Part shown: piece after piece, positions 16,627-33,070 of the stretch
Layout of the letters: every line of letters begins with the position of its first letter
How positions within the stretch are numbered: the stretch's first letter is position 1
Origin: a virus
DNA: 33,070 nt
Direction: 5' to 3' (one strand)
Virus genome (UHGV): UHGV-1834275
Notes under the pieces: model-generated
What the model saw: only the letters and a program-made list of their open reading frames with translations
Told to the model about the DNA's origin: nothing
The model's database searches: none
Translations under genes and position numbers: made by a program

Positions 16627-16640
16627 TTCTCTATATTTCC

Positions 16641-17045: not shown

Positions 17046-17248
17046 CCATAGTTATTAATGGATGTTAGGCGTATATAGATTTCACTGATACCGCTTAAAT
17101 CATCGTATACATTACTTACTGTATAACTAACACCGCCGATACCTAGAATAGTACCTGCTGTAATATTATGCGTTTTAATATCTGCTGACTTTGCAGAAAT
17201 AAACGTTTCTACACTTTCTACTAATCCTTCAGTACCGCTATCTAACAC
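17039..17248 (-). CDS. Small hypothetical protein (GTG start in the track)
   Basis: ORF only; non-ATG start; overlaps small ORF 17242..17358. Confidence 0.3.
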   Translation of the reverse strand: MLDSGTEGLVESVETFISAKSADIKTHNITAGTILGIGGVSYTVSNVYDDLSGISEIYIRLTSINNYGW

Positions 17249-17358
17249 AACGGGCGTACATCTACTATACCCGTAAATGACGCCCCGTTAATTGTGATAG
17301 GTTCACCAAAGGCATTTAAGAAAGTAGAATCAATTTGATTACTTGTAAAATGCCTCAT
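17242..17358 (-). CDS. Small ORF (38 aa) immediately after the capsid gene; not in the supplied track
   Basis: ATG at 17358 preceded by AAGGA about 8 nt upstream, directly after the capsid stop; translation MRHFTSNQIDSTFLNAFGEPITINGASFTGIVDVRPLC. Confidence 0.3.
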   Translation of the reverse strand: MRHFTSNQIDSTFLNAFGEPITINGASFTGIVDVRPLC

Positions 17359-17367
17359 GGGTAATCC

Positions 17368-19218
17368 TTATGCTTGTAGTTTAATTTGTACGAATGCTTC
17401 CTCGTGACCGATTGCAGTGTCGAGATATTGGAAACTACGAATAGCGATAGTTTGAGCCGCACGATAAGTAGTATCGTCAAAATCTAGTTCTTGGCCTTCA
17501 TTCCAGTTAGCGAAAATTAGCTCTGAGAAGTCACCGATTAGAATGGTATCTTGTGCAACGAAAGTAGATTCAATTACACGTACTTCATCGTTTAGCCACA
17601 TGTCATAGCGATGACCTGCTACCATTGCTACGGCTGCGGTATTGCTGAGAACTGCGGTTTGACGTAGTTTTGCTAGCATTGCTGGATGCACGATAGCTAC
17701 ACAACGATTAACATCAACGTTTGCTACACCTAGTGCCTCAATTGCTTTTTGTACGTCTGCTTCGGTTACTGTACCCGCTGCTGCTGTTTCTTGTACTGGT
17801 ACTGCTAGTGCAATTTTATCAAATACTGCTTTTTCTAGACCGTTAGAGCAATGGCGTAGTAGTTCATCAGTTACATAACGTTCAGTTGCTGCATTGCTTA
17901 GTAGCATTGCTTTAGTAACTTTAATACCTGCTGCAAACATAGTAGGCTTTAGAGTGATCTTGTCGAAAGATTCAAAACCATCTACTACGGATTCATCTTC
18001 ACCGTAGAATTTCGCTACAGGGTTCATACCTTTAGCACGTGGGATAGAGAAATTACCACGACCTGCTAGGCCACCAAATACAGTAACAGGTAGTTGACCT
18101 AGTACAGTACGTGCTAGTAGTTCACGTAGATAAGAGTCGGCTAGTTGTTCTTTAACTAGACCTGCTGCGGTAACAGTAGAGGTAGTATCTGAAGTAGAAC
18201 GTACCATTGCATTTAGATCAGCACTATAACCACGTGAACCTTTATCAAAAGTTGCTAGTTGGTTATCTTCACCTTTAAGACTACGTAGACCTTCAGCGAT
18301 TAGAGATTTATTTTCCATTTGTTTGATATCCTTATCAATTGATTTATCTTTATTTAGTAGTGAGCGTTTAAATTCATCTACGCTTACACCGTTTTTAATT
18401 GCTTCTTCGGTACTAATCCCTAGTACGTTAGAAATAGATTGAAGTTCGCGTACACGCTTATCTTCTACATCTTTATTTAGTTTTTCTTGAATATTGATTT
18501 CAGTAGTTGCAATAGAACGTTCTTCTACTAGTTCCACTTCTTGAAGTGGTTCGGATACTTCTTCTTTTACTTCTTCTTCTTTCACATCTTCAGCGACTAC
18601 TACAACTTCTTCAGTAACTTCTAATTCTGGTTGTACTTCTACTTCCTGAATTTCTTCTACGGCTTCTACTTGTGGTAATTCTTGTTTTTGTTCTTCCATG
18701 ATTGGTTGATCCTCTAAAGTGATTTCTTCATTTCTATTTAGTGATCTTCCAATTCCTACTGTATTGTCTGCGGGGGTACTTACTGAACTTAATTCATATG
18801 GTTCCCATCGAGTTACATATAAATTATCACCTTCAAAGTAATAATCTTTAATGTTGTAACCTACTGATACTTTCGGGCGAATGCCTTCTAAGATCATACC
18901 GAAAATAGTTGTAGCACTTCCTAAAGCACTAAAGCGTACTGTTGCACGACATACTTTATCCATATCTACGCGGGCGTTTTCTACTATTCCAACTTGACGC
19001 ATTGCATCATGTTCTACTAGAACTGGTGCACCATCATTAAGACGGTTTAAATCTACGTTCTCTGGATTGCATAGAAGGATCTCATTAAATAGAGATCCGT
19101 TGATTTCGCGAGTTACTGGAATTTCTGAGGCAAAAGATAATTCGACGGTACGATCATTTTCATCAATAGCATTACTGATCTGTGTTAGATTGATCGCCCT
19201 CTTCTGGTTCAATTCCAT
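17368..19218 (-). CDS. Prohead protease - acidic scaffold-like linker - major capsid protein, encoded as a single ORF
   Basis: N-terminal ~160 aa resemble HK97-family prohead protease (VLVEHD...QVG; KVSVGY; YELSSVSTPADN similar to E.SLV..PA); a Glu/Val-rich linker (EEVEVQPELEVTEEVVVVAEDVKEEEVKEE); C-terminal ~300 aa of capsid-like composition. It is the only capsid candidate between portal and tail genes. Confidence 0.7.
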   Translation of the reverse strand: MELNQKRAINLTQISNAIDENDRTVELSFASEIPVTREINGSLFNEILLCNPENVDLNRLNDGAPVLVEHDAMRQVGIVENARVDMDKVCRATVRFSALGSATTIFGMILEGIRPKVSVGYNIKDYYFEGDNLYVTRWEPYELSSVSTPADNTVGIGRSLNRNEEITLEDQPIMEEQKQELPQVEAVEEIQEVEVQPELEVTEEVVVVAEDVKEEEVKEEVSEPLQEVELVEERSIATTEINIQEKLNKDVEDKRVRELQSISNVLGISTEEAIKNGVSVDEFKRSLLNKDKSIDKDIKQMENKSLIAEGLRSLKGEDNQLATFDKGSRGYSADLNAMVRSTSDTTSTVTAAGLVKEQLADSYLRELLARTVLGQLPVTVFGGLAGRGNFSIPRAKGMNPVAKFYGEDESVVDGFESFDKITLKPTMFAAGIKVTKAMLLSNAATERYVTDELLRHCSNGLEKAVFDKIALAVPVQETAAAGTVTEADVQKAIEALGVANVDVNRCVAIVHPAMLAKLRQTAVLSNTAAVAMVAGHRYDMWLNDEVRVIESTFVAQDTILIGDFSELIFANWNEGQELDFDDTTYRAAQTIAIRSFQYLDTAIGHEEAFVQIKLQA

Positions 19219-20665
19219 TTTCCATTTTTTCCTTTTGTATTTCTTCCATGACTACCGCCGGGTCATAACCCATTTCACTAATAACCATTGCTTTACTCTT
19301 AAGTCCTGAATCAATTGCAAGTACCTCAGTTTGAAGGTCTTTATATGGATCAAGTGAGATTTGGCGAGTTGGTACATATTGGGCATGAGTTAGATTATTG
19401 AAGTCACTAAAACTTAAATTGCTTAATGCACTATTATTTATCATTGCTGCTTTCAACCACGTAACATAAAGAGGCTTAAGTACAGAAACGATTAACGCAT
19501 TAGTACGAGTTTTAAATGTTGATTGTTGTAGTTTGTCCGTTAGTTTTGCTGCACTAAATGAAGCATTACTAGTATCAGAGGTTAGGGATTGTTTTGTAAT
19601 ATCAAGCCCCATTGCAATCATCATTAATTGGTTATCTACGAATTCACTAATACCATCTGTAGTTTGTGTAGGGTTAACAGTTTTAATATCCTGTCCTGCC
19701 TGTAGTTCTACGATAGCTGCCGGATTTAGATAATCTTGTTCATAGTAAGAAACATCATCACCTTTTAGTAATTCGATTTCATCACTATCTGGATTAGTAA
19801 TAAATGCCATTGCTGAAGCTGCTACTTTACGAGAAGTAATAGCCGCAACCATGAATTCTTCTAATTCTTTTAATTTATCAGTACCTGCATGTACATCTGG
19901 AATACCGCGTTGCTGTGTTGGGTAGTCCTGCTGGAATAGGTGTAGAATCTCTTCTGCTGGTACTCGTTCACGTTCACCTAAAAGGTAGTTGTACATGATA
20001 GGGTTATAGCGAGTAATCCAATATGCAACCGGGCGATTAGTATCAATATCAAATTCAATACCATTACTGATATAGTTACCTGAAGGTAGAATCTGGTTTT
20101 CATATGTACTAATTCGCATTGAGTCGATGATCTCTACCTGTGGCATACCATCACGCGTTTGGTGAATGCGGATAAAGCAATCTCCATCGATACTACGAGT
20201 ACGTTCTACAAGGCGTTGGAATGTACTGATATCAAGCGTACCGCAACGGGAAAAGGCTTTAGGATCTTCGGCCCATGCATAAAAAGCATCTTCTAACTGT
20301 TTATTCACCTGTTGGTTTACTTTGTCATCCTGTGAACTATGCGAACAAGGGCGAATATATAGACCATCTGCACCAGTAACACCCGCTGAGTTAGTCGCAA
20401 CGTACTTTTTAACGATACCGTTTTTAATAGATAGTTCACGGCTTGCCGCTACCATCACTGGTAAAGTACGATTAATAATTGCGTTAATGTTCCCGGCTTG
20501 ATTTCCTGCGGTGAATCCGAATGAAATAACAGGACTACTTGAACCTAGATTTAGGGAAGTCATAGCACGTTTCATTGGGTTGTTTTTCATTAATGCAGTT
20601 TTATGTATTTGTACTTTTGGTTTTTCTGGTTCCTGTACTTTTTTATTTTTATTCCATCCGAACAT
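19172..20665 (-). CDS. Portal protein (lambda gpB-like family)
   Basis: 497 aa, immediately downstream of terminase and the small head gene and upstream of the protease/capsid gene; acidic C-terminus; overall resemblance to lambda-family portal proteins by eye. Start overlaps the upstream stop (TAATG). Confidence 0.8.
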   Translation of the reverse strand: MFGWNKNKKVQEPEKPKVQIHKTALMKNNPMKRAMTSLNLGSSSPVISFGFTAGNQAGNINAIINRTLPVMVAASRELSIKNGIVKKYVATNSAGVTGADGLYIRPCSHSSQDDKVNQQVNKQLEDAFYAWAEDPKAFSRCGTLDISTFQRLVERTRSIDGDCFIRIHQTRDGMPQVEIIDSMRISTYENQILPSGNYISNGIEFDIDTNRPVAYWITRYNPIMYNYLLGERERVPAEEILHLFQQDYPTQQRGIPDVHAGTDKLKELEEFMVAAITSRKVAASAMAFITNPDSDEIELLKGDDVSYYEQDYLNPAAIVELQAGQDIKTVNPTQTTDGISEFVDNQLMMIAMGLDITKQSLTSDTSNASFSAAKLTDKLQQSTFKTRTNALIVSVLKPLYVTWLKAAMINNSALSNLSFSDFNNLTHAQYVPTRQISLDPYKDLQTEVLAIDSGLKSKAMVISEMGYDPAVVMEEIQKEKMENGIEPEEGDQSNTDQ

Positions 20666-21156
20666 TAACGCCCCCTATGAAATGTTGTAATAGATTTAAT
20701 AGGGCTACCTGCGTTTAGTCCTTTCATATCTGAAATTAAATCGTTTGCCCTTTTAACATAGGTAGAACGTAGGCGTAGAAGTACTTCGCTTGATTCATAA
20801 GTTAGGGCTTTATTTTGTATTGATTGACTTAGTACACCACCACCTTTAATACGGTCTAGTGTAATTTGGTCAATATCTTTTATGATCTGAATTAGATCAT
20901 TATATTCTGAGGCTTTACTAGTTGGATCAGTTACTTCAAATTGTTGTACACCGTATGCTTTAGGACTATCAATAATTGCAGTCCAGATACCCACGCCCCA
21001 CGTATTAGTATCAATATCAGGGAATGGGTAAACATAGGAAGTTTTAACACCGTTAGGATCTATCAAATCGATATTAGTTCCTTCTGGATAGTTGAAAGTA
21101 ATTGTTTCACCTTTGATAATATCGCCTTTTAAATCAACTTTGCGAACAATTGCCAT
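20665..21156 (-). CDS. Hypothetical head-module protein (start placed at internal ATG 21156)
   Basis: ORF between large terminase and portal; AAGGA about 10 nt upstream of the ATG at 21156, which lies just after the terminase stop; the track start at 21192 would overlap terminase by 23 nt. Confidence 0.5.
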   Translation of the reverse strand: MAIVRKVDLKGDIIKGETITFNYPEGTNIDLIDPNGVKTSYVYPFPDIDTNTWGVGIWTAIIDSPKAYGVQQFEVTDPTSKASEYNDLIQIIKDIDQITLDRIKGGGVLSQSIQNKALTYESSEVLLRLRSTYVKRANDLISDMKGLNAGSPIKSITTFHRGR

Positions 21157-21169
21157 TTGTTTTATTTCC

Positions 21170-23098
21170 TTATTTAAAGAATCCTCCACCACGTCTAGAC
21201 GGACGTACTACACGACCTGTTTTTACTGGTGCTGGTTCTTCTTTATTTACTTCTTTATTTAGTCCTTTCTCTTTTTGTTTGGCGTTGAATTCGCGTAGTT
21301 TGCGGAATGGCTGATTACCTAATTTAGATAGATACCAGTGGAAACATATTAAAGCGTAGTTAAGACAATCAAGCGTTTCATTCCTTGCTGAACTAATTTT
21401 CTTAACCCATACCCACGCCCCAGCTTTAATAACTCTCTTCTCACTTGATACCTGAATAAAGTAATCATCTGGTACTGAATGGCTGAAGTGTATTTGTACT
21501 TCACTACTATTACCACTATCCGATACTGCACGGTTTAATAGTTGTCTAATATTACTTTTCCCTAAGTTTACGTTTAGGTTTATTAGACTATGACCACCAG
21601 CCGTAGAGCCTTTAAAGAGTGGGTTAGTATTTGAAGTACCGCCCTTGATTGGTTTAAAGATTGTCGATGCACTACAATAGCGATATACCGTACTGGTTGC
21701 GTTACCGTTCGAACTATCTACAAAACCTGCAAGTACTTTAAGTGGTTTACCGGATACGGTTTTAAAGTTAGTTTGTGAAAATGCTGTTAGCTTATTCCAT
21801 GCGGGAGCCTCTATTTTAGTACAGTCAATGCTATGAATACTGCGATGATCGAGTACATAAAGATTCTTTTCACTTATTCCTAACGTTGTTACTTCAAGGC
21901 GGTCTAACTGTTGGTCTACACCTAGTACGATTCCTTGACAGTCATCCGGCACGGTATCTATATCTATTGAACTATCACGTAGGTTTTCAAGTAATACTAA
22001 ATCATGATCGGTATTCTCTTTATCAATATAAGGAAGTCCTAAGACGTTATTGTAGAATGAGGCTAGATCAAATGTATAATGTGCTTCGGCAAAATCCTGT
22101 ACTATTGATTTGATCGAGTTAATCGGGGAGTATAAACGGCTAATATGATACCCCATGATATCCGTTACTTCTGGTACTGTAGCTATCCATTCACCCTTAC
22201 GTACCATTCTTACACGTTCGGCTTCTGTGATTACATTATTACACTTAGGACATTGTAGTTTTGCTGTCTCTGCATCTGGAATGCGACGACGACCACCATC
22301 AATAATTTTCCAGTCGAATTTAACATTTTCAAATACTAATTCATGTGCATGATCACAATGTGGGCAAGGTACGTAGAACTTCTGTTTATTACTTTGCTCG
22401 TACTGCTGAGTGATTAAATCATTCTCATCAAGTGGTGTAGAACAAACCATAATAAGAGGGTTGCTAAAAGCCTTTGTACGCTGTTCTGCTAGCTTTAGTG
22501 GGTTCCCTTCATCACCATCTGCATCTACGTTAGATATTTCGTCAAGAAAGATACGGGGGGCTGTCAAGCCTCGCAAATTCGCACTACTACCCAATGTTAG
22601 GAAGTACGTAAAAGTACCGTCTAAGTTTTGTTGTGTCTTATCATTATTAGTATAGTTTTTATCATTCTTATTACTGACTAGATTTTTAAGTACTGCACAT
22701 GCTTCGATTACTGATTGCCATTTACCAGTACGAAACTTACTAGTAGTGCTGGCTGTTGCACCTGCGAAAATTAGATTGCTTGGATCATTTGCGAGGAAGT
22801 AGTACATACTATTCTGTAAAACTGTTGTTTTGAGAAGTTGTGCACTGCTCATCAAAACTATTTTTCTAATTCTTGGATTAGTAATGTCATTTATGGGCTT
22901 GTGCTGAAAGGAAAATAACTTTACGCGTTGTCCTTGTAGTTCCCCATCCGGGAATACTAAATTATTCTCTACCCATTCCGCTGGTAGTTGTCGCTTCGGA
23001 GGTAGGATCGACTTCGCCGCCCTCGTTAGTACCTTCATCATCTTCTGGTAGTTGTTCATCCGTGTATGTTCCTTCATATTCATAGCTACCAATTTCAT
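21170..23098 (-). CDS. Terminase large subunit, lambda GpA family
   Basis: LPAEWVENNLVFPDGELQGQRVKLFSFQ...SAQLLKTT parallels the lambda gpA N-terminus (TAVEWADANYYLP...FQ...SAR); C4 zinc-ribbon CPHCDHAHEL...CPKCNNV as in gpA (CPHCGEE...); C-terminal NETLDCLNYAL resembles gpA NEALDCFVYAL. The true start is probably an internal Met, since the ORF overlaps the small-subunit gene by up to 137 nt. Confidence 0.9.
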   Translation of the reverse strand: MKLVAMNMKEHTRMNNYQKMMKVLTRAAKSILPPKRQLPAEWVENNLVFPDGELQGQRVKLFSFQHKPINDITNPRIRKIVLMSSAQLLKTTVLQNSMYYFLANDPSNLIFAGATASTTSKFRTGKWQSVIEACAVLKNLVSNKNDKNYTNNDKTQQNLDGTFTYFLTLGSSANLRGLTAPRIFLDEISNVDADGDEGNPLKLAEQRTKAFSNPLIMVCSTPLDENDLITQQYEQSNKQKFYVPCPHCDHAHELVFENVKFDWKIIDGGRRRIPDAETAKLQCPKCNNVITEAERVRMVRKGEWIATVPEVTDIMGYHISRLYSPINSIKSIVQDFAEAHYTFDLASFYNNVLGLPYIDKENTDHDLVLLENLRDSSIDIDTVPDDCQGIVLGVDQQLDRLEVTTLGISEKNLYVLDHRSIHSIDCTKIEAPAWNKLTAFSQTNFKTVSGKPLKVLAGFVDSSNGNATSTVYRYCSASTIFKPIKGGTSNTNPLFKGSTAGGHSLINLNVNLGKSNIRQLLNRAVSDSGNSSEVQIHFSHSVPDDYFIQVSSEKRVIKAGAWVWVKKISSARNETLDCLNYALICFHWYLSKLGNQPFRKLREFNAKQKEKGLNKEVNKEEPAPVKTGRVVRPSRRGGGFFK

Positions 23099-23534
23099 TT
23101 AATTGATCATCTATTTTTTCCTGTAGTTTGATTTTTAATTCTAATGCGTCTGCTGATTCGAATAATTCAACATAACTTGACGCGGGAATACTTCTTAATA
23201 CTTGGCGTAGTTGGTAGAAGTATTGGGATAAAGTTTGCTGTACTACTGCTACTGGTATTAGCTCGCCGGATTGCTGACGTAATTCCATTTCTTTAATATC
23301 AGCTTCTGCTTCTAACTTACGTAGTGTTGCTTTTTGTATTTGGCCTTTTGTATCACCGCTTCTTAGTGGTTCGATTACGTTTGCAAGTAACCAATCGTCA
23401 ACTAATTTCTTAGGCCAGGTGATATCTAAACCTTTACCAGACCATATACGGCTAACAGTAGAATGCTCTACGCCGAAACGATCCGCGATTTCTTGCCACG
23501 TGTAGCGGGTTCCATCGTCTTTAATTTTTGCCAT
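22962..23534 (-). CDS. Terminase small subunit, Nu1-like (start placed at internal ATG 23534)
   Basis: N-terminal helix-turn-helix (WQEIADRFGVEHSTVSRIW), then Trp-containing and coiled-coil region (LVDDWLLANV...EAEADIKEMELRQQ) as in lambda Nu1; acidic C-terminus; AAGGA about 10 nt upstream of ATG 23534. Located immediately upstream of the GpA-like gene. Confidence 0.7.
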   Translation of the reverse strand: MAKIKDDGTRYTWQEIADRFGVEHSTVSRIWSGKGLDITWPKKLVDDWLLANVIEPLRSGDTKGQIQKATLRKLEAEADIKEMELRQQSGELIPVAVVQQTLSQYFYQLRQVLRSIPASSYVELFESADALELKIKLQEKIDDQLNEIGSYEYEGTYTDEQLPEDDEGTNEGGEVDPTSEATTTSGMGRE

Positions 23535-23763
23535 TTTGTTTAGTCCTTGTTTAGTACAATAAACCTGTACTTTCCTTTTATTTCGTTTTGTTTGTTTTCG
23601 ATTAGAAATCCCACGAATTTTAAATACAATTCGCGGCGAAAACTCGATTTTTTTGTTCTCAATTAGAGAACCTAAAGTTAAAACTTCACTCACGATTTTA
23701 ATTTTTGATTTGTAATAATATTTATATTATCATTGTATTATAAAGTAACAACAAGGACATGTA

Positions 23764-24702
23764 ATGAAACACATAATCCAAACCAGAAGTGTTTTTAAGG
23801 ATATCGAAGACTCTTTATTTAGTGAGTTGCATTCAGCTAAGACAAGTATCAAAATCTGTGTTGCATGGATAAACTTTGAGCTTTTTGAAAATATATTATT
23901 ATCTAAGGCTAAAGAAGGTGTTGAAGTTGAGATATTAGTTAATAATGATTATATCAATACAAAATTTCTTGATAAAATATCTGATAATATAAAACCATTA
24001 ATTAATCTAATTAAAAACCCTATTAGTAACCACTTAATGCATCATAAATTTTGTATCATTGATGATGAAGTTTTGATTACTGGCAGTTATAATTGGTCAA
24101 AAAGAGCACCATATCATTATGAAAATATAATAATCATCCGTAATGATTTCAATCTAATAATGCAATTTAAACATGAGTTTGCAGATTTAAAATACATGGG
24201 TGCAATGCCAAGTACAGAATTTAATGCATTTAAAGTAACCAAAAATCTCAATAGATTTGTTGTTGGCACATATAGTTCATCTGTGGGGATATATGAAACC
24301 GTCACATTGCAGTTATGGGAAATTGATATTAACAACTTAACTTTTGAACGACATGGCGAAATGGATATCCCTTTCTTCAATTATTTATTAGATATTAATA
24401 CTGATGATCATTATCTTATTGATGAAAAAGAAAGGTACATCGATCTATATGATCAAGAGCGTAGACAGATGGAGACTATCCAAAGTCATTTTAGAAGATT
24501 AAATTGTTCAATTCATGCTTATGGAACAGCAATAATAGCGAACGAGAGCGAATACCTTGAAGGTTATGAAGAGCCTATTCGTGTAATTCACTTCAATTGG
24601 ATAGATATGCGATTAAGCAAAGTATTACCCTCTTCTTTGCCCGCAACTATGGAACTTGAAGGATTATGGCACGAAATATATGCTCCAAATGGATATATTT
24701 AA
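23764..24702 (+). CDS. Phospholipase-D-family (single HKD) nuclease with an uncharacterised C-terminal domain
   Basis: Perfect HxK(x)4D(x)6GSxN motif: HHKFCIIDDEVLITGSYN; preceding KICVAWINFELFENILLSKAKEGVEVEILV typical of PLD/Nuc folds; ~170-residue C-terminal region without recognised motifs; AAGGA 7 nt upstream of the ATG. Confidence 0.8.
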   Translation: MKHIIQTRSVFKDIEDSLFSELHSAKTSIKICVAWINFELFENILLSKAKEGVEVEILVNNDYINTKFLDKISDNIKPLINLIKNPISNHLMHHKFCIIDDEVLITGSYNWSKRAPYHYENIIIIRNDFNLIMQFKHEFADLKYMGAMPSTEFNAFKVTKNLNRFVVGTYSSSVGIYETVTLQLWEIDINNLTFERHGEMDIPFFNYLLDINTDDHYLIDEKERYIDLYDQERRQMETIQSHFRRLNCSIHAYGTAIIANESEYLEGYEEPIRVIHFNWIDMRLSKVLPSSLPATMELEGLWHEIYAPNGYI

Positions 24703-24719
24703 ATAATATTCTATAATTA

Positions 24720-25094
24720 ATGAGGAACGGTATTATGTCTAATTATCCTATACCACTTAGCCTTGAATTTAATAGTCAAGATACTGCTAATATCATTTGT
24801 AGTTATCTAGAAAAAAATCATCAAGATTCTATTTTAAAAACCATATTAAATATAGATTTGTCTTTTATTGATTATCGTGCACAATCTTCTAATTACTTTA
24901 TAATTAATGACGTTGAATATATTGGAGATAATAATTATATTTTATATTATAAAATAAACTACTACATTTATAATCTCTGTAAAGATATGGATATTGATGA
25001 TGACTACGAGACTTCGATAAATTTTACATTGAATAATGGATTTTTAGTATTTGATATAATTGATTGTGAAAGAAATATATCAGATGAAATATAG
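24720..25094 (+). CDS. Small acidic hypothetical protein, co-transcribed with the PLD nuclease
   Basis: Starts 17 nt after the PLD stop; Asp/Ile/Tyr/Asn-rich; no recognised motif; followed by a hairpin terminator. Confidence 0.5.
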   Translation: MRNGIMSNYPIPLSLEFNSQDTANIICSYLEKNHQDSILKTILNIDLSFIDYRAQSSNYFIINDVEYIGDNNYILYYKINYYIYNLCKDMDIDDDYETSINFTLNNGFLVFDIIDCERNISDEI

Positions 25095-25158
25095 CCATAT
25101 TTAATTATCACTTAAGGATTTCAACATCAGGATTTAAATTTTAATTATATATAATAGT

Positions 25159-25190
25159 AAAAGCCTAATACTCATCAGTAATAGGCTTTT
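25159..25190. terminator. Bidirectional terminator between convergent accessory genes
   Basis: AAAAGCCTA (25159..25167) / TAGGCTTTT (25182..25190) 9-bp stem with 14-nt loop; A- and T-tracts built into the stem ends. Confidence 0.5.
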
Positions 25191-25197
25191 ACCTAAA

Positions 25198-25617
25198 TTA
25201 TAATTGATTCAATCGATAGATATTAGATGTACTTGAGCCATCGCTATACACCTCTGATATAGTCAGTTTGTTTCCATCCACTTTGTATTTTACTACACTA
25301 TCAGCCGGATCATTTCTCCAACGACCTGAGCTATCTGGATTGTTTGATGCCCACATAACTTGATCATCAATCAGTTTGCACTTGATAGCCCATCTTGTGC
25401 TGTCATCTTTACGTATGTAATGGACATAGGCTACATCAGATTGAATCTTATCAAGCTTCATTATTTTATGATCTCGCCCAAACATAGATGCAGCCGCCGC
25501 TTTGCAGATCTGACCAACATTAGCTTCCGCTGCGTAGAGTGAAGAACTGAACAATAATGGCACAATCACTAATAACTTTATCATCGCATATCGTCTCGTA
25601 GTAAAAATTAATTTCAC
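25198..25617 (-). CDS. Secreted/periplasmic protein with N-terminal signal peptide
   Basis: MIKLLVIVPLLFSSSLYAAEA has the n/h/c pattern of a Sec signal peptide with an A-x-A site; the track start is GTG at 25617 with AAGGA upstream, and ATG 25584 is an alternative. Mature part has paired Cys residues; no catalytic motif. Confidence 0.55.
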   Translation of the reverse strand: MKLIFTTRRYAMIKLLVIVPLLFSSSLYAAEANVGQICKAAAASMFGRDHKIMKLDKIQSDVAYVHYIRKDDSTRWAIKCKLIDDQVMWASNNPDSSGRWRNDPADSVVKYKVDGNKLTISEVYSDGSSTSNIYRLNQL

Positions 25618-25618
25618 C

Positions 25619-26344
25619 TTATTTCCTTAATAACTTTTTTAATTCCTCAACTGTCTTCATTTCTTTTCCAATATGAATCATTGCATGACAGTTTGCACAT
25701 AAAGGTATAAGATCTTCAATTGGGTCAATCTTATAGCGTTTACCAATAGTATGTAGTGGCACTATATGATGAACATGAATATAATTTTTTCCGTGACTTC
25801 CATACACTTCTTCAAAATTAAAACCACAGACACCACAACTCAAACCATGTTTATCGATACATTCTTTTCTAGCCTTTGGATCTCTCTCATAGTACGTAGC
25901 AATCCTTTGATGCTTTTCACCTTCATAGTATTCACTTTCTATTTCAGGTGTGAATGAATAGTAATCTTCATCGGTGGCATACCAATCTCCATCTTTTTTA
26001 GTAAGATATTTTCGTACTATTTTCTTTTCAAAATGTTTAATCCTAGCAGCACCATTTTCAGTTGTTTTCTCATGCCTAGTCTGGCTAAAGGTGAAAAGAC
26101 TATACCCTTCATGTAAAATTTTATCTATGTGTTCGATAGATTGTGTATAACCATTTTTTTTGTGTCCATTTACATTTTCACGCCAACTGCTAGCCAAGAT
26201 TAAAACTTTCTTACCATCATCTGATCTAAGATCTTCCCAAGCTCCAAAAATTATTTTTTTGTTGATCTCATCAATAAATGACCAACTCCAGTTATCATTT
26301 TTACATGTAGCACCCAAAGAACGCATGAACTCTGTTCGGGACAT
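25619..26344 (-). CDS. HNH endonuclease (McrA-type HNH) with an N-terminal domain of unknown function
   Basis: C-terminus CGVCGFNFEEVYGSHGKNYIHVHHIVPLHTIGKRYKIDPIEDLIPLCANCHAMIH matches the McrA-type HNH/zinc-ribbon pattern (C..CG...HH..PL...G....N...LC.NCH...H); N-terminal ~170 residues show no recognised motif. Confidence 0.8.
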   Translation of the reverse strand: MSRTEFMRSLGATCKNDNWSWSFIDEINKKIIFGAWEDLRSDDGKKVLILASSWRENVNGHKKNGYTQSIEHIDKILHEGYSLFTFSQTRHEKTTENGAARIKHFEKKIVRKYLTKKDGDWYATDEDYYSFTPEIESEYYEGEKHQRIATYYERDPKARKECIDKHGLSCGVCGFNFEEVYGSHGKNYIHVHHIVPLHTIGKRYKIDPIEDLIPLCANCHAMIHIGKEMKTVEELKKLLRK

Positions 26345-26382
26345 TTTTCATCCTTAAAATATGTGACCTACATCACATGAAA

Positions 26383-26463
26383 CTATCGACTGTAGGAGGT
26401 TTCTATCCTTCGTAAAGCTAACAAACCTACCCAAAGTAGATAGAAACCTCCTACAATCGATAG
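26383..26463. repeat. 25-bp inverted repeat (one mismatch) with 31-nt spacer in a divergent intergenic region
   Basis: CTATCGACTGTAGGAGGTTTCTATC (26383..26407) and GATAGAAACCTCCTACAATCGATAG (26439..26463) are reverse complements except for one position. Confidence 0.75.
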
Positions 26464-26547
26464 TGTATGTGTGTTCCTTTTGATGGTAAAGTATTAATAT
26501 AGTGTTACCTAGACTGGGTGTACATATAATCAATATTTGGGTTTGAT

Positions 26548-27258
26548 ATGCTTAATCTCACTAAATGTAATTTACTTTTGATCGGCACTGTAATAACTCT
26601 ATTACTGATAGCTATTCTTGTAGGTATAAAAATACTATTCTCCGATTCTAATCCAGATCTAGGCAGCTTAGCAGATTGGATCAGTTCTGTATCCGCAATA
26701 GGGACTCTTGGTGTTGCCTGGTTAGCTTATAGTAAAGCTGATGACTACATTGACAAAAAAGCTTCGGAAAGAGGAATTGATATCCTTGTCAATATGGTAA
26801 CTGAATCATTCGTTGCTTATTTCAACTCACTAAATGAAACTAATTTCCATGCTTCAAAACTTGAAAATAAAATGATATTGATTGGCTTGGTTGATGAAAA
26901 AGTAGATTGCAATATTGAACTACAATCATTAAGAGAAAAAATCATAACTCTCTTCGAAAATAGTCATCAAATAGACAAAGATTTTATAAAAATGAAAATA
27001 ATGAAAATATCAAAACCCAGTGATATTTTCTACGATCCAGTAACTAGCGATGATACATTGCAAGCGTTAAAATTAGCATTTCATAAACTGAACACTGAAA
27101 TTTGTGAGAATGAAAATCAATACAACATTAATAATGATTTACTTAGCGAAAATATCAACTTTATTAAAAACACTACCGAAAAGTTAGCCCATGATATTCG
27201 CAAACAGTTCTTTACCTCGCCGAATACTTATAAAGATTATTTTGGAAATCTGTCTTAA
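26548..27258 (+). CDS. Membrane protein with two N-terminal TM helices; paralogue of 779..1519
   Basis: LLLIGTVITLLLIAILVGIKILF then DLGSLADWISSVSAIGTLGVAWLAYSK; shares the GSLADW(L/I)SS loop motif with 779..1519; soluble C-terminal domain diverged. Confidence 0.6.
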   Translation: MLNLTKCNLLLIGTVITLLLIAILVGIKILFSDSNPDLGSLADWISSVSAIGTLGVAWLAYSKADDYIDKKASERGIDILVNMVTESFVAYFNSLNETNFHASKLENKMILIGLVDEKVDCNIELQSLREKIITLFENSHQIDKDFIKMKIMKISKPSDIFYDPVTSDDTLQALKLAFHKLNTEICENENQYNINNDLLSENINFIKNTTEKLAHDIRKQFFTSPNTYKDYFGNLS

Positions 27259-27303
27259 ATTATACGCTATCAAATATTCCATCAACATAAACAAGGAAAG
27301 TAG

Positions 27304-28002
27304 ATGACTACTCTCACTAGAACTTATAATTTACCAAATGAGCTAGTTGAACATTTTTCAAATAACATTGTCTATTTCGAAAAACTTTTGTCTAAGGATT
27401 TTTCTGACTTAAATGTTAATGTAGCACCAGAAGACATTAAGAAAATAGAAAAATCTTTCGAAGTATCACATAGAATACGTGATTTCGAAATCAATCTGTA
27501 TTGGCAAAGACTGAACTTCCTTTGGGCCATTACAGCATTGCTATTTGCTGGATGGGGAACATTGATCTTTAAAATCATCGAATTCAATGGAGGGGAAGCA
27601 CCTTATATTATATTTGCCGCCTTATCATTTCTCTCACTTATAGGTGGGATTGTAACTATATTCACAAGCTTTATCATTGAGGCAGGTAAGCATTGGCAAA
27701 AGGTTTGGGAGTTTCATGTTCACGCTCTTGAACCTTTTGTATCAGGTCATTTATATGCAATTCAGTTTTCTTATAAAAATAAAAAAAAGGCATCTATAAG
27801 TAGAAGCGTAGAAACTTTCAATTATGCTTTGCTGTTTCTTTGGGCATGTTCAGCAGTATTCGCCGCAATCATCCCTTCACAAATAGGGAACGGTCTTGCA
27901 GGCATTATCCAATTAGTTATTTCTCTTCTTATAGTTGGTGCTTTTGTTTATATACGCAACTCTGTTACTAAAAAGGAGTCTATTAAAATTCAGCTTGATT
28001 AA
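27304..28002 (+). CDS. Integral membrane protein (about 4 TM helices) with ~65-residue soluble N-terminus
   Basis: AAGGAAAG ribosome-binding site; hydrophobic segments LNFLWAITALLFAGWGTLIF, YIIFAALSFLSLIGGIVTIFTSFII, FNYALLFLWACSAVFAAII, LAGIIQLVISLLIVGAFVYI; 45 nt downstream of the 2TM gene, same strand; followed by a terminator. Confidence 0.6.
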   Translation: MTTLTRTYNLPNELVEHFSNNIVYFEKLLSKDFSDLNVNVAPEDIKKIEKSFEVSHRIRDFEINLYWQRLNFLWAITALLFAGWGTLIFKIIEFNGGEAPYIIFAALSFLSLIGGIVTIFTSFIIEAGKHWQKVWEFHVHALEPFVSGHLYAIQFSYKNKKKASISRSVETFNYALLFLWACSAVFAAIIPSQIGNGLAGIIQLVISLLIVGAFVYIRNSVTKKESIKIQLD

Positions 28003-28022
28003 TGTAGCATAAGGCATCTACT

Positions 28023-28232
28023 TTAAGCAGCCCCATAATGGGGCTTTCTTTTTTTAGCATTTACTTTTTGAATGCTCATAAGAATCTCACGTACCTTTGC
28101 TTCATTATCACCTGCATCATATAGTACCCCATCTTTCCAGTACTGACCCAGTAGTTCTACTTTTGGTAAGCCCGGCATTGCCCTTACTCCATCTTCGTGA
28201 TCAATATGTAATTCAAGTGATCCAATAATCAT
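28023..28232 (-). CDS. Small hypothetical protein (questionable)
   Basis: ORF only; its last ~10 codons are encoded by the plus-strand terminator hairpin and T-run. Confidence 0.3.
   Translation of the reverse strand: MIIGSLELHIDHEDGVRAMPGLPKVELLGQYWKDGVLYDAGDNEAKVREILMSIQKVNAKKRKPHYGAA
28029..28055 (+). terminator. Rho-independent terminator of the 26548..28002 membrane-protein operon
   Basis: AGCCCCA (28029..28035) / TGGGGCT (28039..28045) stem, 3-nt loop, then TTCTTTTTTT. Confidence 0.6.
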
Positions 28233-28429
28233 TGCACGAAAGTTGTTAGGGTTAATTGAAAGTATTCTGCATCGTCTGGTTGTAGTTCAGCGTAATATTC
28301 TGGTGTGCTATCAAATGTAATTTCATTATTGATCATTACGCCCTGTGTATTTACTGCATATCTACGTTGTTTCATTCGGTCAAATAATAGTATTCCTTTC
28401 ACGCGGTGATATGTTGTTAGTTCCCTCAT
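28229..28429 (-). CDS. Small hypothetical protein
   Basis: ORF with 4-nt overlaps to both neighbours (operon-like). Confidence 0.4.
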   Translation of the reverse strand: MRELTTYHRVKGILLFDRMKQRRYAVNTQGVMINNEITFDSTPEYYAELQPDDAEYFQLTLTTFVQ

Positions 28430-28689
28430 TTGGTTAGTCCTTGGTAGTAAGCCTTAGTAGCTCTGATATTGAATTCTTTGTTTAGGTGTGTATATGATGG
28501 CATATGCCCGTTATCCGTCATGTATCGCTCTATGTAGGCCGTAAGTAGTTCTAACTTGGTTGGGCTTACATCTGGTGTATCACTCAATAGAGAGCGTTTA
28601 GGGGCGTTATAGAGGCCATCACTTCGACCGCCTTGATTCTTGATATTGTGGCGTAGTGTATTCCACTTACCGGGCTTTTGTTTTGGCAT
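28426..28689 (-). CDS. Small basic hypothetical protein (start at ATG 28689 rather than track start 28755)
   Basis: AGGAG about 9 nt upstream of ATG 28689; translation begins MPKQKPGKWNTLRHNIKNQGGR; first gene downstream of the repeat-rich control region. Confidence 0.45.
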   Translation of the reverse strand: MPKQKPGKWNTLRHNIKNQGGRSDGLYNAPKRSLLSDTPDVSPTKLELLTAYIERYMTDNGHMPSYTHLNKEFNIRATKAYYQGLTK

Positions 28690-28755
28690 AGTATTGTACT
28701 CCTGTACTGGTTGATTAATTGGGGCGGCGACTCGTTCACACCTGCGGCGGTTCAC

Positions 28756-29156
28756 TGCGTGGCGACTTCAAGAGACTTTGAATAACTGACTTTCAGTAGT
28801 ATCTCTTGAGTACTTACACCTACTGGAGTGAGCGAAAGCGAGAAAAGCACGCTTGCGGGTTTTCGATGCGATAGCGAGAAAAACGCAATGTGATACCCTT
28901 ATGTGTTTTTTATAGGGATAATAGATAAGACGCTTTAGCGGATTAGCTATTATCCCTCTGAATAATAGATATGGCGTATTTTATATCTGTTTTTCATCTT
29001 TCCATTAGAAAGTAGGATAATTATAATAGGTTGGAAAGATGCCATTTTGCCCCCCATTTTAACGGTAGAATGCGGGTTTCAGGGGTGTTGTTGGCCATAT
29101 TTTCACACCATCTTTCCATCAAAGGGATTCCCACGCTAAACAGTTGGAAAGATGAT
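28756..29156. promoter_or_regulatory. Repeat-rich non-coding control region (candidate operators / iterons / attachment-type site)
   Basis: Four copies of TTGGAAAGATG or its complement in alternating orientation (28995..29004, 29032..29041, 29109..29118, 29145..29154), forming two inverted pairs with 26-27 bp spacers; perfect 10-bp inverted repeat GGGATAATAG / CTATTATCCC (28915..28924, 28947..28956); direct repeats of AGCGAGAAAA and ATAATAGATA. Confidence 0.5.
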
Positions 29157-29633
29157 TTATAGTGAATTTATGTATACCTTGATACTTCCTAAGCTAGTTC
29201 CATCCCTCATCATCTGGTGTACTTTCTTTTTTTCGTGCTGTGTTAGCTGTCGTGCATCACCCTTTAGTGCATACTTGATCATTACGCCGTGATTGTATGC
29301 CTCTAATAGTTCGTGTGCGGCCTTTACTGCAATGTTTCTATAATTATATAGCATTGACTTGTTTAGCGGCTTCTCGTTCCATTTCATGCGATTCTGGCGG
29401 CGAGTATTCACGGTATGTTGTACTTCCTCTATTCCAATCATAGGACACTCTAAAACCAGCTTTAGGATCTCTAACCTACTAACCTTAGTACGGCTAGTGG
29501 TTCCTTCAAACTCTTTAGTAATGACTTCATCAATAATATCTATTGCTTCTGGTGTAAACTGATTCAAAAACTTATAACCTGATAAAACGTTGTGTAAGTC
29601 TGTATTGTCGTATAATTTCTTTTTTCCTGCCAT
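29157..29633 (-). CDS. Hypothetical protein, possible regulator (start placed at ATG 29633)
   Basis: AAAGG about 10 nt upstream of ATG 29633; C-terminal ARQLTQHEKKKVHQMMRDGTSLGSI could be a helix-turn-helix; no firm family assignment. Confidence 0.45.
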   Translation of the reverse strand: MAGKKKLYDNTDLHNVLSGYKFLNQFTPEAIDIIDEVITKEFEGTTSRTKVSRLEILKLVLECPMIGIEEVQHTVNTRRQNRMKWNEKPLNKSMLYNYRNIAVKAAHELLEAYNHGVMIKYALKGDARQLTQHEKKKVHQMMRDGTSLGSIKVYINSL

Positions 29634-29708
29634 AATAAATACCTTTATAAAATGTGTTATGTTCCTTAATGGCGTTATGGTGTTTTCTCCCACCATAACG
29701 CCTTTTTA

Positions 29709-30194
29709 TTAGTTGTCTTTTGCAACCTTTGTATATGTCTGTCTATGTGTACTTCTATTGTACTTTTCATTCATGAATAGCGTGATATTGATACATGACA
29801 TTCCACCAGTGTATAACGCCTTTACTTCATCTTTTTGTACTGGTGTTAGACGTGGTTCATTTTGTTTCTTACGTACTGCCTTACATGAATTTTCACTATA
29901 TGTAATCCACTGCAAATTAGAAATATTGTTGTCTCGTTTATCACTATTGATATTATCTACAACTAATCTTTTATTTGTTTGGGGTTTACTTAGAAATGTT
30001 TCTGCTACGAGTCTGTGTGTCTCTATCGGATATGATTTAGATTTCCCATCCTCATAAACAGTTAAAGTAACTTTATAGTACCCATTACTTTTACTATAAC
30101 TCTGTGTTAGATAATTACCCGTTTTAGTATTGCGTACTTCTCCGTTACTACTTACTTCATAATTTACATATTGTGTTTGTTTCCATAATGTCAT
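29709..30194 (-). CDS. HNH homing-endonuclease-like protein (NUMOD4-like N-terminus plus HNH_3-like core)
   Basis: YEVSSNGEVRN...NGYYKV...HRLVAETF...VDNINSDKRDNNISNLQWITYSEN matches the phage free-standing HNH endonuclease pattern (Y.VS..G.V...G....h.lva..f.....v.H.d..k.nN...NL.w.t..eN), but with Asn where the first His is expected. Confidence 0.7.
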   Translation of the reverse strand: MTLWKQTQYVNYEVSSNGEVRNTKTGNYLTQSYSKSNGYYKVTLTVYEDGKSKSYPIETHRLVAETFLSKPQTNKRLVVDNINSDKRDNNISNLQWITYSENSCKAVRKKQNEPRLTPVQKDEVKALYTGGMSCINITLFMNEKYNRSTHRQTYTKVAKDN

Positions 30195-30272
30195 TTTCTC
30201 TTCCTTGGACTATGGGGTACTGTGCAATCCTTGCAAGTACATGAGTAATACTTTTTACGATAGTATCAAACG

Positions 30273-30494
30273 TTATTGATTTTCGATTAGTAGTTTGAAA
30301 GTTGGAAAATTCATCCTTTCAAATAGTTCTGTATGTAGTTTACGTGTTGTGTGGTAATACTTCATATCTTTATAGAAATCAGAATGGATTACCGTATTAC
30401 AGTACGTTTTACCATTTGGTTTAGATACATCTGCAATTAGTACATTGTCGGTATCGGTACGTACATTGTTAAAATGGAATTCGCCAAAGTTCAT
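30273..30494 (-). CDS. Hypothetical protein, translationally coupled to the upstream RHH ORF
   Basis: ATG overlaps the stop of the 51-aa ORF (TAATG); GGAGGA upstream; no recognised motif. Confidence 0.5.
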   Translation of the reverse strand: MNFGEFHFNNVRTDTDNVLIADVSKPNGKTYCNTVIHSDFYKDMKYYHTTRKLHTELFERMNFPTFKLLIENQ

Positions 30495-30649
30495 TACTTC
30501 TTTCCTCCTAAGATTACTTGTTGATTGAGTAGATATTGTAAAGCGGTACTCATTGATTTTGCTTTCCCTTCATCAATGATACTTTGTAGTACATTGTGTT
30601 GATGTTCGTTTAGACGTGCTGATACTTTGTATTCTTTATTTTCTTTCAT
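30494..30649 (-). CDS. Ribbon-helix-helix (Arc/MetJ/CopG-like) DNA-binding protein, 51 aa; not in the supplied track
   Basis: Translation MKENKEYKVSARLNEHQHNVLQSIIDEGKAKSMSTALQYLLNQQVILGGKK: short beta-strand (KVSARL) followed by two helices, typical of RHH repressors or antitoxins; AAGGA about 7 nt upstream of the ATG. Confidence 0.5.
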   Translation of the reverse strand: MKENKEYKVSARLNEHQHNVLQSIIDEGKAKSMSTALQYLLNQQVILGGKK

Positions 30650-30847
30650 TGATTTTCCTTTTGTCTGCAAATCCTTAAAAATTTCATGTAAAAATCACCC
30701 CGTAGGGATACGGGGTAATAACAAAATCTAAGGAGGAGGGATTTTAATATTCACACTTATTTATGAGATGAGAGCGGTCGCCCCCTTCATATACTATTAT
30801 TATATCACATTTTGCCCATTTCGTCCCAGAAATCGACAAAATCAATT

Positions 30848-31012
30848 TTAAGTGGCTGATTTATATGTATTTATTACAGAAGTCGCGATTATCGCCATAA
30901 TGCATAAGAAGAGATATACTAAAAATGCAATGTATAGATAAACTATCCACCCGGTGATCATAAACACCATACCTACCACTAATACAAAAGCACTGACTAA
31001 CCAATCTAACAT
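30848..31012 (-). CDS. Small hydrophobic membrane protein (54 aa); not in the supplied track
   Basis: ATG at 31012 preceded by AAGGGG; translation MLDWLVSAFVLVVGMVFMITGWIVYLYIAFLVYLFLCIMAIIATSVINTYKSAT (two hydrophobic helices). Confidence 0.4.
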   Translation of the reverse strand: MLDWLVSAFVLVVGMVFMITGWIVYLYIAFLVYLFLCIMAIIATSVINTYKSAT

Positions 31013-31058
31013 AGTTTCCCCTTATAATTATTATGTACAATTATTTATCAATAAGACG

Positions 31059-31097
31059 AAAAAAAGCCCCGTAATGCGACATCAATCGATACGGGGC
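31059..31097 (-). terminator. Rho-independent terminator downstream of the recombinase gene
   Basis: On the minus strand GCCCCGTA (31090..31097) / TACGGGGC (31066..31073) 8-bp stem, 16-nt loop, followed by TTTTTTT (plus-strand A7 at 31059..31065), about 75 nt after the recombinase stop. Confidence 0.6.
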
Positions 31098-31171
31098 ATA
31101 ACAACTACTACTATATTATTTTTTGTTTACGGTATTTCTAATCTACTTTCTAGGCCAAAATAAATGCCCGT

Positions 31172-33070
31172 CTAGATCTGGTCTATCCGATAACGCTCTA
31201 TGAACTCTTTACGTGTTAAACCAGTCGATTCTAATGCAGTGGCTATATCCTTTGGAACTCGACCATTCAAGGCAATACTATATGTATTGCCTTCATACAC
31301 AATGTCTACTCGATCATACTTTCCGGTATTAGGCCAGAATGAAGCCCCACTTATTTCACTATAACCAACCACTTCTAACATCTCATTAGCAGTATTGAAC
31401 AGATCTAAATAACTTTGTTCAATTTTATCAAGTTGTTCCACTGCTTTATTAAATAATGGCAGATTGCTAGTGGTAAGAAATCCTTCATCTCTGATACTTA
31501 CATTATCAACAGAAGAAAATTCAACTTTAAACGCCCAATGTGGTTTTCTATCAGTTCCACCAAAAACTAACCATTCATCTTTAAAATGATACTTTATTTT
31601 TATCGTTATACACCCATCAGTTTTATCAACTATAACACTTTCAATAATAGAACTAATTACTTTCCTTATTTTATTTCTATCCGTATCCTGCATATTTGTA
31701 AAAACCGCCCACTGAATAAGAATCATAAATTCATTTATATCGACTTCTAGAGATCCTTTACCTTTCAGTGAATATAAGCGTTCTTTTAACTTATCAACTT
31801 CCAGAACAGTCTTTTTACGTTCCATATCAAACGCATTTAGTTGAACTGCTAACGCACTAACATTAGGAGCAATTGCTATTGCTTGAGCCATGTTTGTTAT
31901 GCGAGATTCCAGATCAGTTATCAACGTTTCTTTTCTACTGAGGTCTTCTTCTATCACAGTTGTGTCAATACCATCTTTTAGTCTCTTATTCATGTAACCG
32001 ATCAGTAGTGAAATGATCGTACAGTGTTCAACTAATTGTGCTGATATAGACCAGCCAGAACAGTTTTTTTGTAAGTGAACCCCATTAGTACAAATATAGC
32101 GAGCACTGCCATGATTCATGAAAGAATGCATAGTTCCTCCACACTTGCTACACCGTAACACCTGCAACCCTGATAACAATTTAATTTCTTCTACTTTGTC
32201 TTTCTTAGCCTTGAAGTTGTTTTGCTGCTTACGTTCAGCCAAGGTTAAATACTCTGCTTCATCTTTGCATAACCATGGATAGTAGTTATCAAGTTTGTAA
32301 GTAGCACCACCAGCATTGATAGTCCTTTCACCAATCAACGCCCGATTATCACGCATCTTTTTCAATACCTGATAATCCCATTCTTTACCCTTTAAACCAT
32401 TAGGATATTTTTTATCGAGATGACGCTTTACTGTATAGATGCCATTCCCATCTAAAAACATGTCTATAGCTTCGCGAGCGATACTCCAGTAAACGGGATG
32501 TTCTTTTACTGCTTCATATTGCGAACCTGAATCATCTATCCAAAATGGATGGCGACCAACTGACTTAATGTTTACTGGCAACCCTGCTTTATGACGTTCG
32601 ACCAAGGCAACAACATTGCCTATGGTCCTGTTAGATTTCGTTTCTGATTCTTCATTGCCACGGATAAACATCAGAATAGAAATCATCAGATCAGTAGGGT
32701 TTTGTCTGATGGATTCTCTGTTATAGACCTTCCGATCCATTCCTGTGACAATCGTTAGCCCTAAACCAATCAATTCAAGGAATAAACGAAGTGCTTCATC
32801 CACCTGATCGCGTGATAGTCGGTCGAGGTTTTCACAGTAAAGCCAAGAGTCAGACGGTATAGCATTATTTTTTACGGCGTCTATGAAGTCACCCAACTTA
32901 CCCGCCCTATTTTTTCCCCTGTAAGCACTCGTGCCAGGTTCCAAAATTTCAACCATTTCAAGCCCCGCTTCTTCAGCATAGGCTTTCGCTGCCGCTACCT
33001 GCCTGTTCTTGGTTGTTCCTTTTTCTTGGCGATCACTTGACCACCTGATATAGCTATAAAGTTGCGGCAT
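31172..33070 (-). CDS. Large serine recombinase (phage integrase of the resolvase/invertase superfamily)
   Basis: N-terminus MPQLYSYIRWSSDRQ has the catalytic-serine motif (Y.R.SS..Q) of serine recombinases; 632 aa with Cys-rich region (CSKCGGTMHS...CTNGVHLQKNCSGW) and long C-terminal extension typical of large serine integrases. The start codon is at the last base of the window. Confidence 0.85.
   Translation of the reverse strand: MPQLYSYIRWSSDRQEKGTTKNRQVAAAKAYAEEAGLEMVEILEPGTSAYRGKNRAGKLGDFIDAVKNNAIPSDSWLYCENLDRLSRDQVDEALRLFLELIGLGLTIVTGMDRKVYNRESIRQNPTDLMISILMFIRGNEESETKSNRTIGNVVALVERHKAGLPVNIKSVGRHPFWIDDSGSQYEAVKEHPVYWSIAREAIDMFLDGNGIYTVKRHLDKKYPNGLKGKEWDYQVLKKMRDNRALIGERTINAGGATYKLDNYYPWLCKDEAEYLTLAERKQQNNFKAKKDKVEEIKLLSGLQVLRCSKCGGTMHSFMNHGSARYICTNGVHLQKNCSGWSISAQLVEHCTIISLLIGYMNKRLKDGIDTTVIEEDLSRKETLITDLESRITNMAQAIAIAPNVSALAVQLNAFDMERKKTVLEVDKLKERLYSLKGKGSLEVDINEFMILIQWAVFTNMQDTDRNKIRKVISSIIESVIVDKTDGCITIKIKYHFKDEWLVFGGTDRKPHWAFKVEFSSVDNVSIRDEGFLTTSNLPLFNKAVEQLDKIEQSYLDLFNTANEMLEVVGYSEISGASFWPNTGKYDRVDIVYEGNTYSIALNGRVPKDIATALESTGLTRKEFIERYRIDQI

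Follow-up and report, generated by a model that had tools for sequence, protein, structure and literature searches.

The window considered here, the 33,070-nucleotide stretch that makes up the viral genome UHGV-1834275, raises a simple question at its right edge: does the large open reading frame (ORF) lying there (31172..33070, minus strand) encode the enzyme that integrated the element and, if so, at which attachment (att) site? A preliminary description of the window had read this ORF as a large serine recombinase acting as integrase and abutting the window edge, and had placed a short, non-tRNA attachment site either just beyond position 33070 or among two hairpins close to the gene. The comparison of genomes makes it highly probable that this ORF is the gene for the large serine integrase of a siphovirus-like prophage of 33,794 bp, which lies in the 5′ coding end of the Escherichia coli gene for the ribosomal protein S12 methylthiotransferase, rimO.

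Boundaries of the prophage and the crossover site

The window ends exactly at the integrase start codon, and both prophage junctions were read from near-identical copies in other assemblies. The exact integrase protein was present in 58 blocks of public assemblies, and copies agreed with the window at 99.7-100% identity across 5.9-11.9 kb. The gene upstream of the integrase was divergent and 43 bp away in 10/10 loci, and its product, a radical-SAM protein of 435 amino acids (aa) with UPF0004, Radical_SAM and TRAM domains, was RimO; the host neighbourhood on this side was the gsiABCD-pdeI-dgcI-rimO region of E. coli. A second look-up, for which a protein encoded near the left window edge was used, revealed that in copies free of the insertion sequence (IS) found there the phage DNA ran on via a 237-aa gene and a DUF2188 gene, and was then followed by bssR, yliI and gstB, the genes normally placed after rimO. 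The presence of rimO at one end and of bssR, yliI and gstB at the other indicates that the element was inserted between rimO and its own promoter region. Moreover, native rimO codons 1-17 were fused to phage DNA at the far junction beside bssR in 6/6 IS-free loci.

In the direction of rimO, the integrase-side junction consists of the complement of the integrase start codon, a 43-bp spacer and ATGTCTAAGATTGGTTTTATATCATTAGGG TG TCCGAAAAACCTTG..., and the far junction reads ...ATGAGCAAAGTAACTCCCCAGCCGAAAATCGGCTTTGTTTCCCTTGGC TG CCCTAAGAATCAAGAAATAAAG..., and in one IS-free scaffold 33,794 bp separate the two TG copies. The two host arms, once joined, formed an 800-nt sequence that matched uninterrupted E. 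coli rimO-bssR loci at 100% identity, and this empty locus was intact in 5417/5426 complete E. coli genomes. The comparison of the junctions with the empty locus yielded an attB of the form ...CCCTTGGC-TG-TCCGAAAAACC... (core GGC TG TCC) and an attP of the form ...ATCATTAGGG-TG-CCCTAAGAATC... (core GGG TG CCC), with the P′ arm motif AATCAAGAAATA. Since attP and attB differ at the base on either side of TG, and each junction presented the expected parental base, the crossover is confined to TG. Judged from the aligned sequences, this switch of parental sequence exactly across TG is the trace characteristic of a serine recombinase, which cuts with a 2-bp stagger. The crossover TG is located at +74/+75 beyond window base 33070 and corresponds to bases 1-2 of the Cys codon (codon 17 of native E. 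coli rimO) in the conserved GCPKN motif of RimO; in methylthiotransferases generally, the conserved cysteines of the UPF0004 domain begin with this one. The arms of the reconstructed attP were dyad-symmetric at 16/26 positions (shuffle p about 0.0008), with palindromic TG flanks (TTAGGG-TG-CCCTAA), and attB presented little symmetry.

Both junctions are thus recombinant products of the rimO TG site, and the short, non-tRNA attachment site that had been expected just beyond 33070 is found within rimO, 74-75 nt after the last base of the window; no tRNA genes were found in the window, and no Rfam matches in 28000..33070. It had been proposed that the sequence be extended past 33070 and compared with an uninterrupted host locus, and it was this comparison that gave attL/attR-type junctions and the TG dinucleotide. 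The prophage boundaries are therefore fixed, on the integrase side by this TG and on the far side by the junction next to bssR, 996 bp beyond the IS insertion. By the mechanism of the enzyme family, integrase dimers on attP and attB would synapse, the catalytic serine (Ser11) would cleave both sites at TG, and the subunits would rotate before strand religation; excision would need a directionality factor, and the circle junction expected of the excised prophage would read ...CATTAGGGTGCCCTAAGAAT....

The second location that had been suggested did not hold. Both hairpins exist where they had been described (30698..30715 and 31066..31097) and have a CCCCGTA/TACGGGG core in common, which would speak for one of them being the att site, with the integrase outside the element or at a different edge of it. 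Such a placement is extremely unlikely, as switches from phage to host DNA were found only at the two TG copies, the one in rimO and the one near bssR, and phage DNA was conserved on both sides of the hairpins in all copies. Moreover, their GC-rich stems followed by U-runs and placed after stop codons have the form of intrinsic terminators, and both hairpins are Rho-independent terminators on the integrase strand. The first one (31059..31097, minus strand) follows the integrase gene, about 75 nt past its stop, and is composed of an 8-bp GC-rich stem, with inverted-repeat arms at 31066-31073/31090-31097, and then U7; its RNA fold reached -18.9 kcal/mol (z -3.57). The second one (30689..30719, minus strand) follows a 54-aa ORF (30848..31012) and is likewise composed of a stem (arms 30694-30704/30709-30719) and a U-run, with a fold of -16.1 kcal/mol (z -3.66); for both, 0/200 shuffles folded equally well. 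The element of the second hairpin was also found by the terminator scan in locus L003 (12352-12377). A third GC-stem hairpin (AAAAAAGCCCGTATTCGGCTACGGGCTTTTATT), whose stem resembles those of the two flagged ones, was observed between convergent ORFs at 745..775 and is probably a bidirectional terminator.

The element carries lambda-like portal and terminase genes plus a tail-tube gene, and has a G+C (GC) content of 36.9%. No repressor or replication gene was recognisable in the 23.7-31.2 kb region with Pfam and PHROGs, and the integrase was also observed beside a different early region with a CI-like repressor. These findings, namely the small unannotated ORFs by the integrase, the early region lacking a recognisable repressor or replication gene, and an integrase module having different neighbour genes in relatives, are what could be expected if the recombinase came from a distinct, small integrative element lodged against a prophage whose own integrase is, or was, a different one. 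This is highly unlikely, however, because a sole pair of recombinant junctions encloses the entire 33.8-kb element, from the integrase to the lysis/tail end. In addition, no Phage_integrase (PF00589-type) domain was found in any called gene across the element or in the window ORFs that were scanned, so that the tyrosine integrase considered in the preliminary description as a possible agent of integration did not appear, and the IS transposase is the only other recombinase-type domain. Finally, a relative in E. coli GF3-3 has the same end-to-end layout: its 33-kb prophage, whose genes are partly different, is bounded by a 70%-identical integrase and has its junctions at this same TG.

The integrase and comparable systems

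The integrase gene (31172..33070, minus strand) encodes 632 aa, its ATG being the final three bases of the window, and PHROGs assigned the product to phrog_95 'integrase' (E 1.6e-45). The N-terminal part comprises a Resolvase-type catalytic domain and long helix E (aa 5-150; 32621..33058; Pfam PF00239, E 1e-12), followed by the core of the Recombinase domain (aa 195-267; 32270..32488; Pfam PF07508, 29 bits for a cut-off of 21.1). Next comes a zinc-ribbon domain (aa 304-349; 32024..32161) that reached 22.4 bits with Pfam PF13408 (Zn_ribbon_recom; cut-off 25.3) and presented beta strands at 305-343 in the structural model; several relatives of the integrase passed this Pfam model. A predicted coiled-coil motif (aa 371-437; 31760..31960) is formed by two long antiparallel helices, modelled at 371-400 and 405-437, and the sole PDB sequence matches of the family profile were designed coiled coils, over this stretch. 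The predicted helices stand where large serine recombinases are expected to have a coiled-coil motif inserted in the zinc-ribbon domain. The C-terminal region (aa 476-632; 31175..31645) was delimited by the homologue alignment and the model, and its final ~50 aa were present in only a subset of relatives. All these segments are encoded on the minus strand.

The catalytic serine, the lack of which would have spoken against a serine integrase, is present. Its codon (TCA, 33038..33040, minus strand) specifies Ser11, the predicted nucleophile, in the context YIRWSSDRQ; this residue aligns with S10 of gamma-delta resolvase and with the Ser in YLRFSDPKQ of the integrase of phage JC1. An alignment of 20 integrase homologues (38-86% identity) revealed that D83, R84 and R87 and the zinc-ribbon cysteines C307, C310, C327 and C337 were invariant, and that Y7, R9, S11 and Q15 were nearly so; the Y-x-R-x-S context of the nucleophile and the D-R-x-x-R motif typical of large serine recombinases are thereby both present. 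The AlphaFold model (mean pLDDT, the predicted local distance difference test, of 79) was structurally closest to complexes of full-length PhiC31, Bxb1 and further serine integrases (E 1e-15 to 1e-13), the zinc-ribbon region being covered, and it also matched the fold of the N-terminal and recombinase domains of PhiC31 (4bqq, E 3.6e-7). The assignment of the protein to the large serine recombinases is thus supported by its domains, its conserved catalytic residues and its predicted fold, and its role as the integrase at the window edge by its place at the end of the 33.8-kb insertion.

Several observations weigh against this explanation. The window contains neither prophage junction, and attP is a reconstruction from the junctions; the free attP junction gave 0 matches both as an exact 20-mer among viral contigs and as a 25-mer with four degenerate positions among metagenome contigs. 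The zinc-ribbon score falls slightly under its cut-off, and no solved integrase was matched when the PDB was searched by sequence, be it with the entire protein, with the family profile or with just the catalytic domain. Moreover, the small early ORFs by the integrase (54, 58, 73, 87, 66 and 69 aa) matched no significant Pfam or PHROGs family from which a directionality factor or repressor could be recognised, neither the attP nor the prophage configuration offered the integrase a convincing sigma-70 promoter, and the prophage copy of the window, having an IS in a phage gene, may be impaired. As to the searches, a looser attP pattern retrieved 21 matches, every one a rimO homologue or a lysogen junction, because attP encodes ISLGCPKN as rimO does; two ~37-kb contigs considered as free phage genomes both end in rimO and are thus integrated copies.

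A precedent for this type of insertion has been characterized experimentally. Burkholderia phage JC1 was shown to integrate in the rimO 5′ end, where a phage ATG keeps RimO in frame (PMC9144972). The JC1 integrase is homologous to the present one (31% identity over 372 aa, E 5e-46), its target is the same position in the Gly-Cys-Pro codons of rimO, and in both phages int adjoins, and is divergent from, a phage-borne surrogate rimO start that leaves RimO in frame. The TG flanks are palindromic in both cases, being CTCGGG-TG-CCCGAG in JC1, at the surrogate start by int, and TTAGGG-TG-CCCTAA in the present prophage. The features that define JC1-type rimO integrases were therefore all found here, namely an integrase homologous to that of JC1, insertion no further than ~20 codons into rimO and an in-frame phage start codon. 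The two systems differ in host (Betaproteobacteria for JC1, Enterobacterales for the present prophage) and in the phage itself, as JC1 is a 61-kb podovirus of 65% GC, whereas the present one is a 33.8-kb element of 37% GC with a lambda-like portal and terminase and a tail-tube gene. Furthermore, the JC1 integrase has 551 aa and is devoid of the C-terminal extension present in the 632-aa integrase, the JC1 surrogate preserves the length of RimO, which becomes 6 aa shorter in the present case, and the JC1 junctions are experimental, while those described here come from genome comparison alone. Insertion with a rebuilt rimO start is consequently a design already known from JC1, of which the present case is an ordinary further example and, biologically, a routine case of a phage mending the gene that it interrupts.

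Other systems are comparable in a more limited way. The order of catalytic, recombinase, zinc-ribbon and coiled-coil domains and the short att sites with a non-palindromic central dinucleotide are common to PhiC31 and Bxb1, which were also the best structural matches; they differ in their att sites, in the absence of the extra C-terminal region, and in showing only 13-16% identity in structural alignments, and they were not found by the PDB sequence searches. The dusA-specific integrases of prophages and islands similarly insert at the 5′ end of a gene that is non-essential and serves RNA/ribosome modification, but they belong to the unrelated tyrosine recombinase family and have another mechanism and another target gene; in the same study, rimO was listed as a mobile-element target in Polaromonas (PMC4482086). 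A table entry for Variovorax boronicumulans J1 reports a siphovirus-type prophage, pp_2, with a serine recombinase and a RimO site (PMC9658991); the att core given in that entry (GTCGCCGGTCTTGGCG) is unlike the present site, and the host is betaproteobacterial.

Distribution of the integrase and the rebuilt rimO start

A scan for relatives, limited to one genome per species, returned 20 related loci, and in 11/20 a divergent rimO was directly upstream of the integrase. These loci belonged to Pseudocitrobacter, Pseudescherichia, Enterobacter, Silvania, Edaphovirga, Serratia, Kosakonia, Scandinavium and Aeromonas rivuli, and 2/11 had a longer surrogate N-terminus. Adjacency to rimO was observed in every locus with a full-length match of at least 48% identity and in no locus with a full-length match of 43% or less. 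On this genomic evidence, the rimO-targeting serine integrases extend from Betaproteobacteria to a clade distributed across Enterobacterales and Aeromonas; no description of this enterobacterial clade was found in the literature that could be searched. The phage itself is without a close described relative (window 348..33070): a megablast of the integrase end (30400..33070) against 50,697 phage records gave no match, and the highest identity to any phage record was 36% for the large terminase and 34% for the integrase.

The integrase was also found unchanged in another genus. In Pseudocitrobacter faecalis DSM 27453, an identical integrase was carried at rimO by a prophage end 99.66% identical to that of the window (locus L020, with L005 and L009), in a flank without pdeI and dgcI. 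The presence of the same phage at the same site in another genus argues for recent, independent integrations, and points to a recent spread that would have crossed genera. Within E. coli, a related integrase was carried by only 7/5426 complete genomes. It was also observed that some E. coli lysogens, and not others, harbor an HTH_3/RelE toxin-antitoxin pair between dgcI and rimO (locus L001, 7719-8424; locus L008, 3782-4418), and the variable occurrence of this pair in the flank indicates that the prophage sits in more than one host background.

These data also bear on whether the recombinase gene might be a fossil, that is, an inactive protein in a fixed prophage whose common location would be due to vertical inheritance only. 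The IS in a phage gene of the window's copy and the failure to find the excised attP form in public contigs would both be consistent with such a state. Nevertheless, the ORF is full length with conserved catalytic residues, the same protein and nearly the same prophage recur at the same site in P. faecalis, the E. coli backgrounds have differing flanks (RelE/HTH pair present or absent, and single-nucleotide polymorphisms), and the site is empty in nearly all complete E. coli genomes (the 5417/5426 given above), so that the insertion is sporadic and recent. A fossil gene is therefore very unlikely. As attB is present and intact in essentially all E. coli, and its core is held constant because it encodes part of an invariant protein motif, one possible use of the enzyme would be integration in a single step, with no need for an engineered landing pad.

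In the lysogen, rimO loses its native promoter and first 16 codons and receives from the phage a TATAAT element and 10 codons (MSKIGFISLG). The surrogate N-terminus through the Cys is MSKIGFISLGC, and the lysogen RimO begins with MSKIGFISLGCPKN... and remains in frame, with 435 aa vs 441 in the native protein. In 10/10 relatives with the same layout, the 43-47-bp spacer presented TATAAT or TATACT 3-5 nt from the integrase start, and TGTACAAAAAAATG was conserved ahead of the surrogate rimO start in relatives with the rimO layout. A simple consensus scan revealed TAGCTA-17-TATAAT facing rimO, a putative promoter that would drive rimO in lysogens; the conservation of TATAAT/TATACT in the spacer would fit a selected function.

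It is possible, although doubtful, that integration is not neutral. With rimO moved behind a phage TATAAT that overlaps the integrase translation-initiation region, the methylthiolation of S12, which takes place at Asp88, would fall under phage control, and since integrase transcription must start within or beyond the att site, it would depend on the state of the junction or meet an opposing rimO transcript. An integrase promoter spanning attP (TTGATT-18-TATAAA) was considered and discarded as unsupported: its -10 hexamer does not end in T, a hybrid match just as weak can be read at the prophage junction, and no counterpart was read in JC1. At the far junction (locus L013, 12060-12120), the native rimO promoter now drives just a 27-aa peptide, followed after ~50 nt by a palindromic terminator-like element (AAAAGAGGCCTCGAGCCTCTTTTTTTT) that would block host transcription into the prophage.

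The insertion sequence and other features of the element

The left edge of the window is occupied by the end of an IS (1..347, plus strand) encoding a transposase with rve/rve_3 domains, of which the C-terminus is at 8..310 (Pfam rve_3, E 1e-16). The identity of the window to IS-free copies begins at base 348, where the 5′ stump of the 237-aa phage gene split by the IS is found (348..486, minus strand); in the IS-free copies, 996 bp more phage DNA extend to the far att junction. The same IS insertion was present in locus L016, whose two IS genes encode HTH_Tnp_1 and HTH_21/rve/rve_3 domains. The IS is consequently a secondary insertion inside the prophage, which settles the question of its position as had been anticipated from locating the att site.

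The small terminase and the early genes are separated by a variable cargo slot of opposite orientation (23764..25094, plus strand), where a 312-aa PLDc_2 nuclease-like protein and a 124-aa ORF are encoded. In the GF3-3 relative, the same slot (locus L041, 38319-39619) is occupied by SLATT and SMODS genes, which suggests a hotspot for defence genes. The 33.8-kb element also harbors three homing-endonuclease-like genes, all on the minus strand (29709..30194, 25619..26344 and 2769..3206), of which two are of the HNH type, NUMOD4 being present in one of these, and the remaining one is GIY-YIG SegE-like; the gene at 29709..30194 was missing or truncated in some otherwise identical copies. Finally, an ORF of 1008 aa that ends in a Peptidase_S74 (endosialidase chaperone) domain was found between the head genes and the tail-tube gene (13600..16626, minus strand), a position that is unusual for a fibre-like protein.

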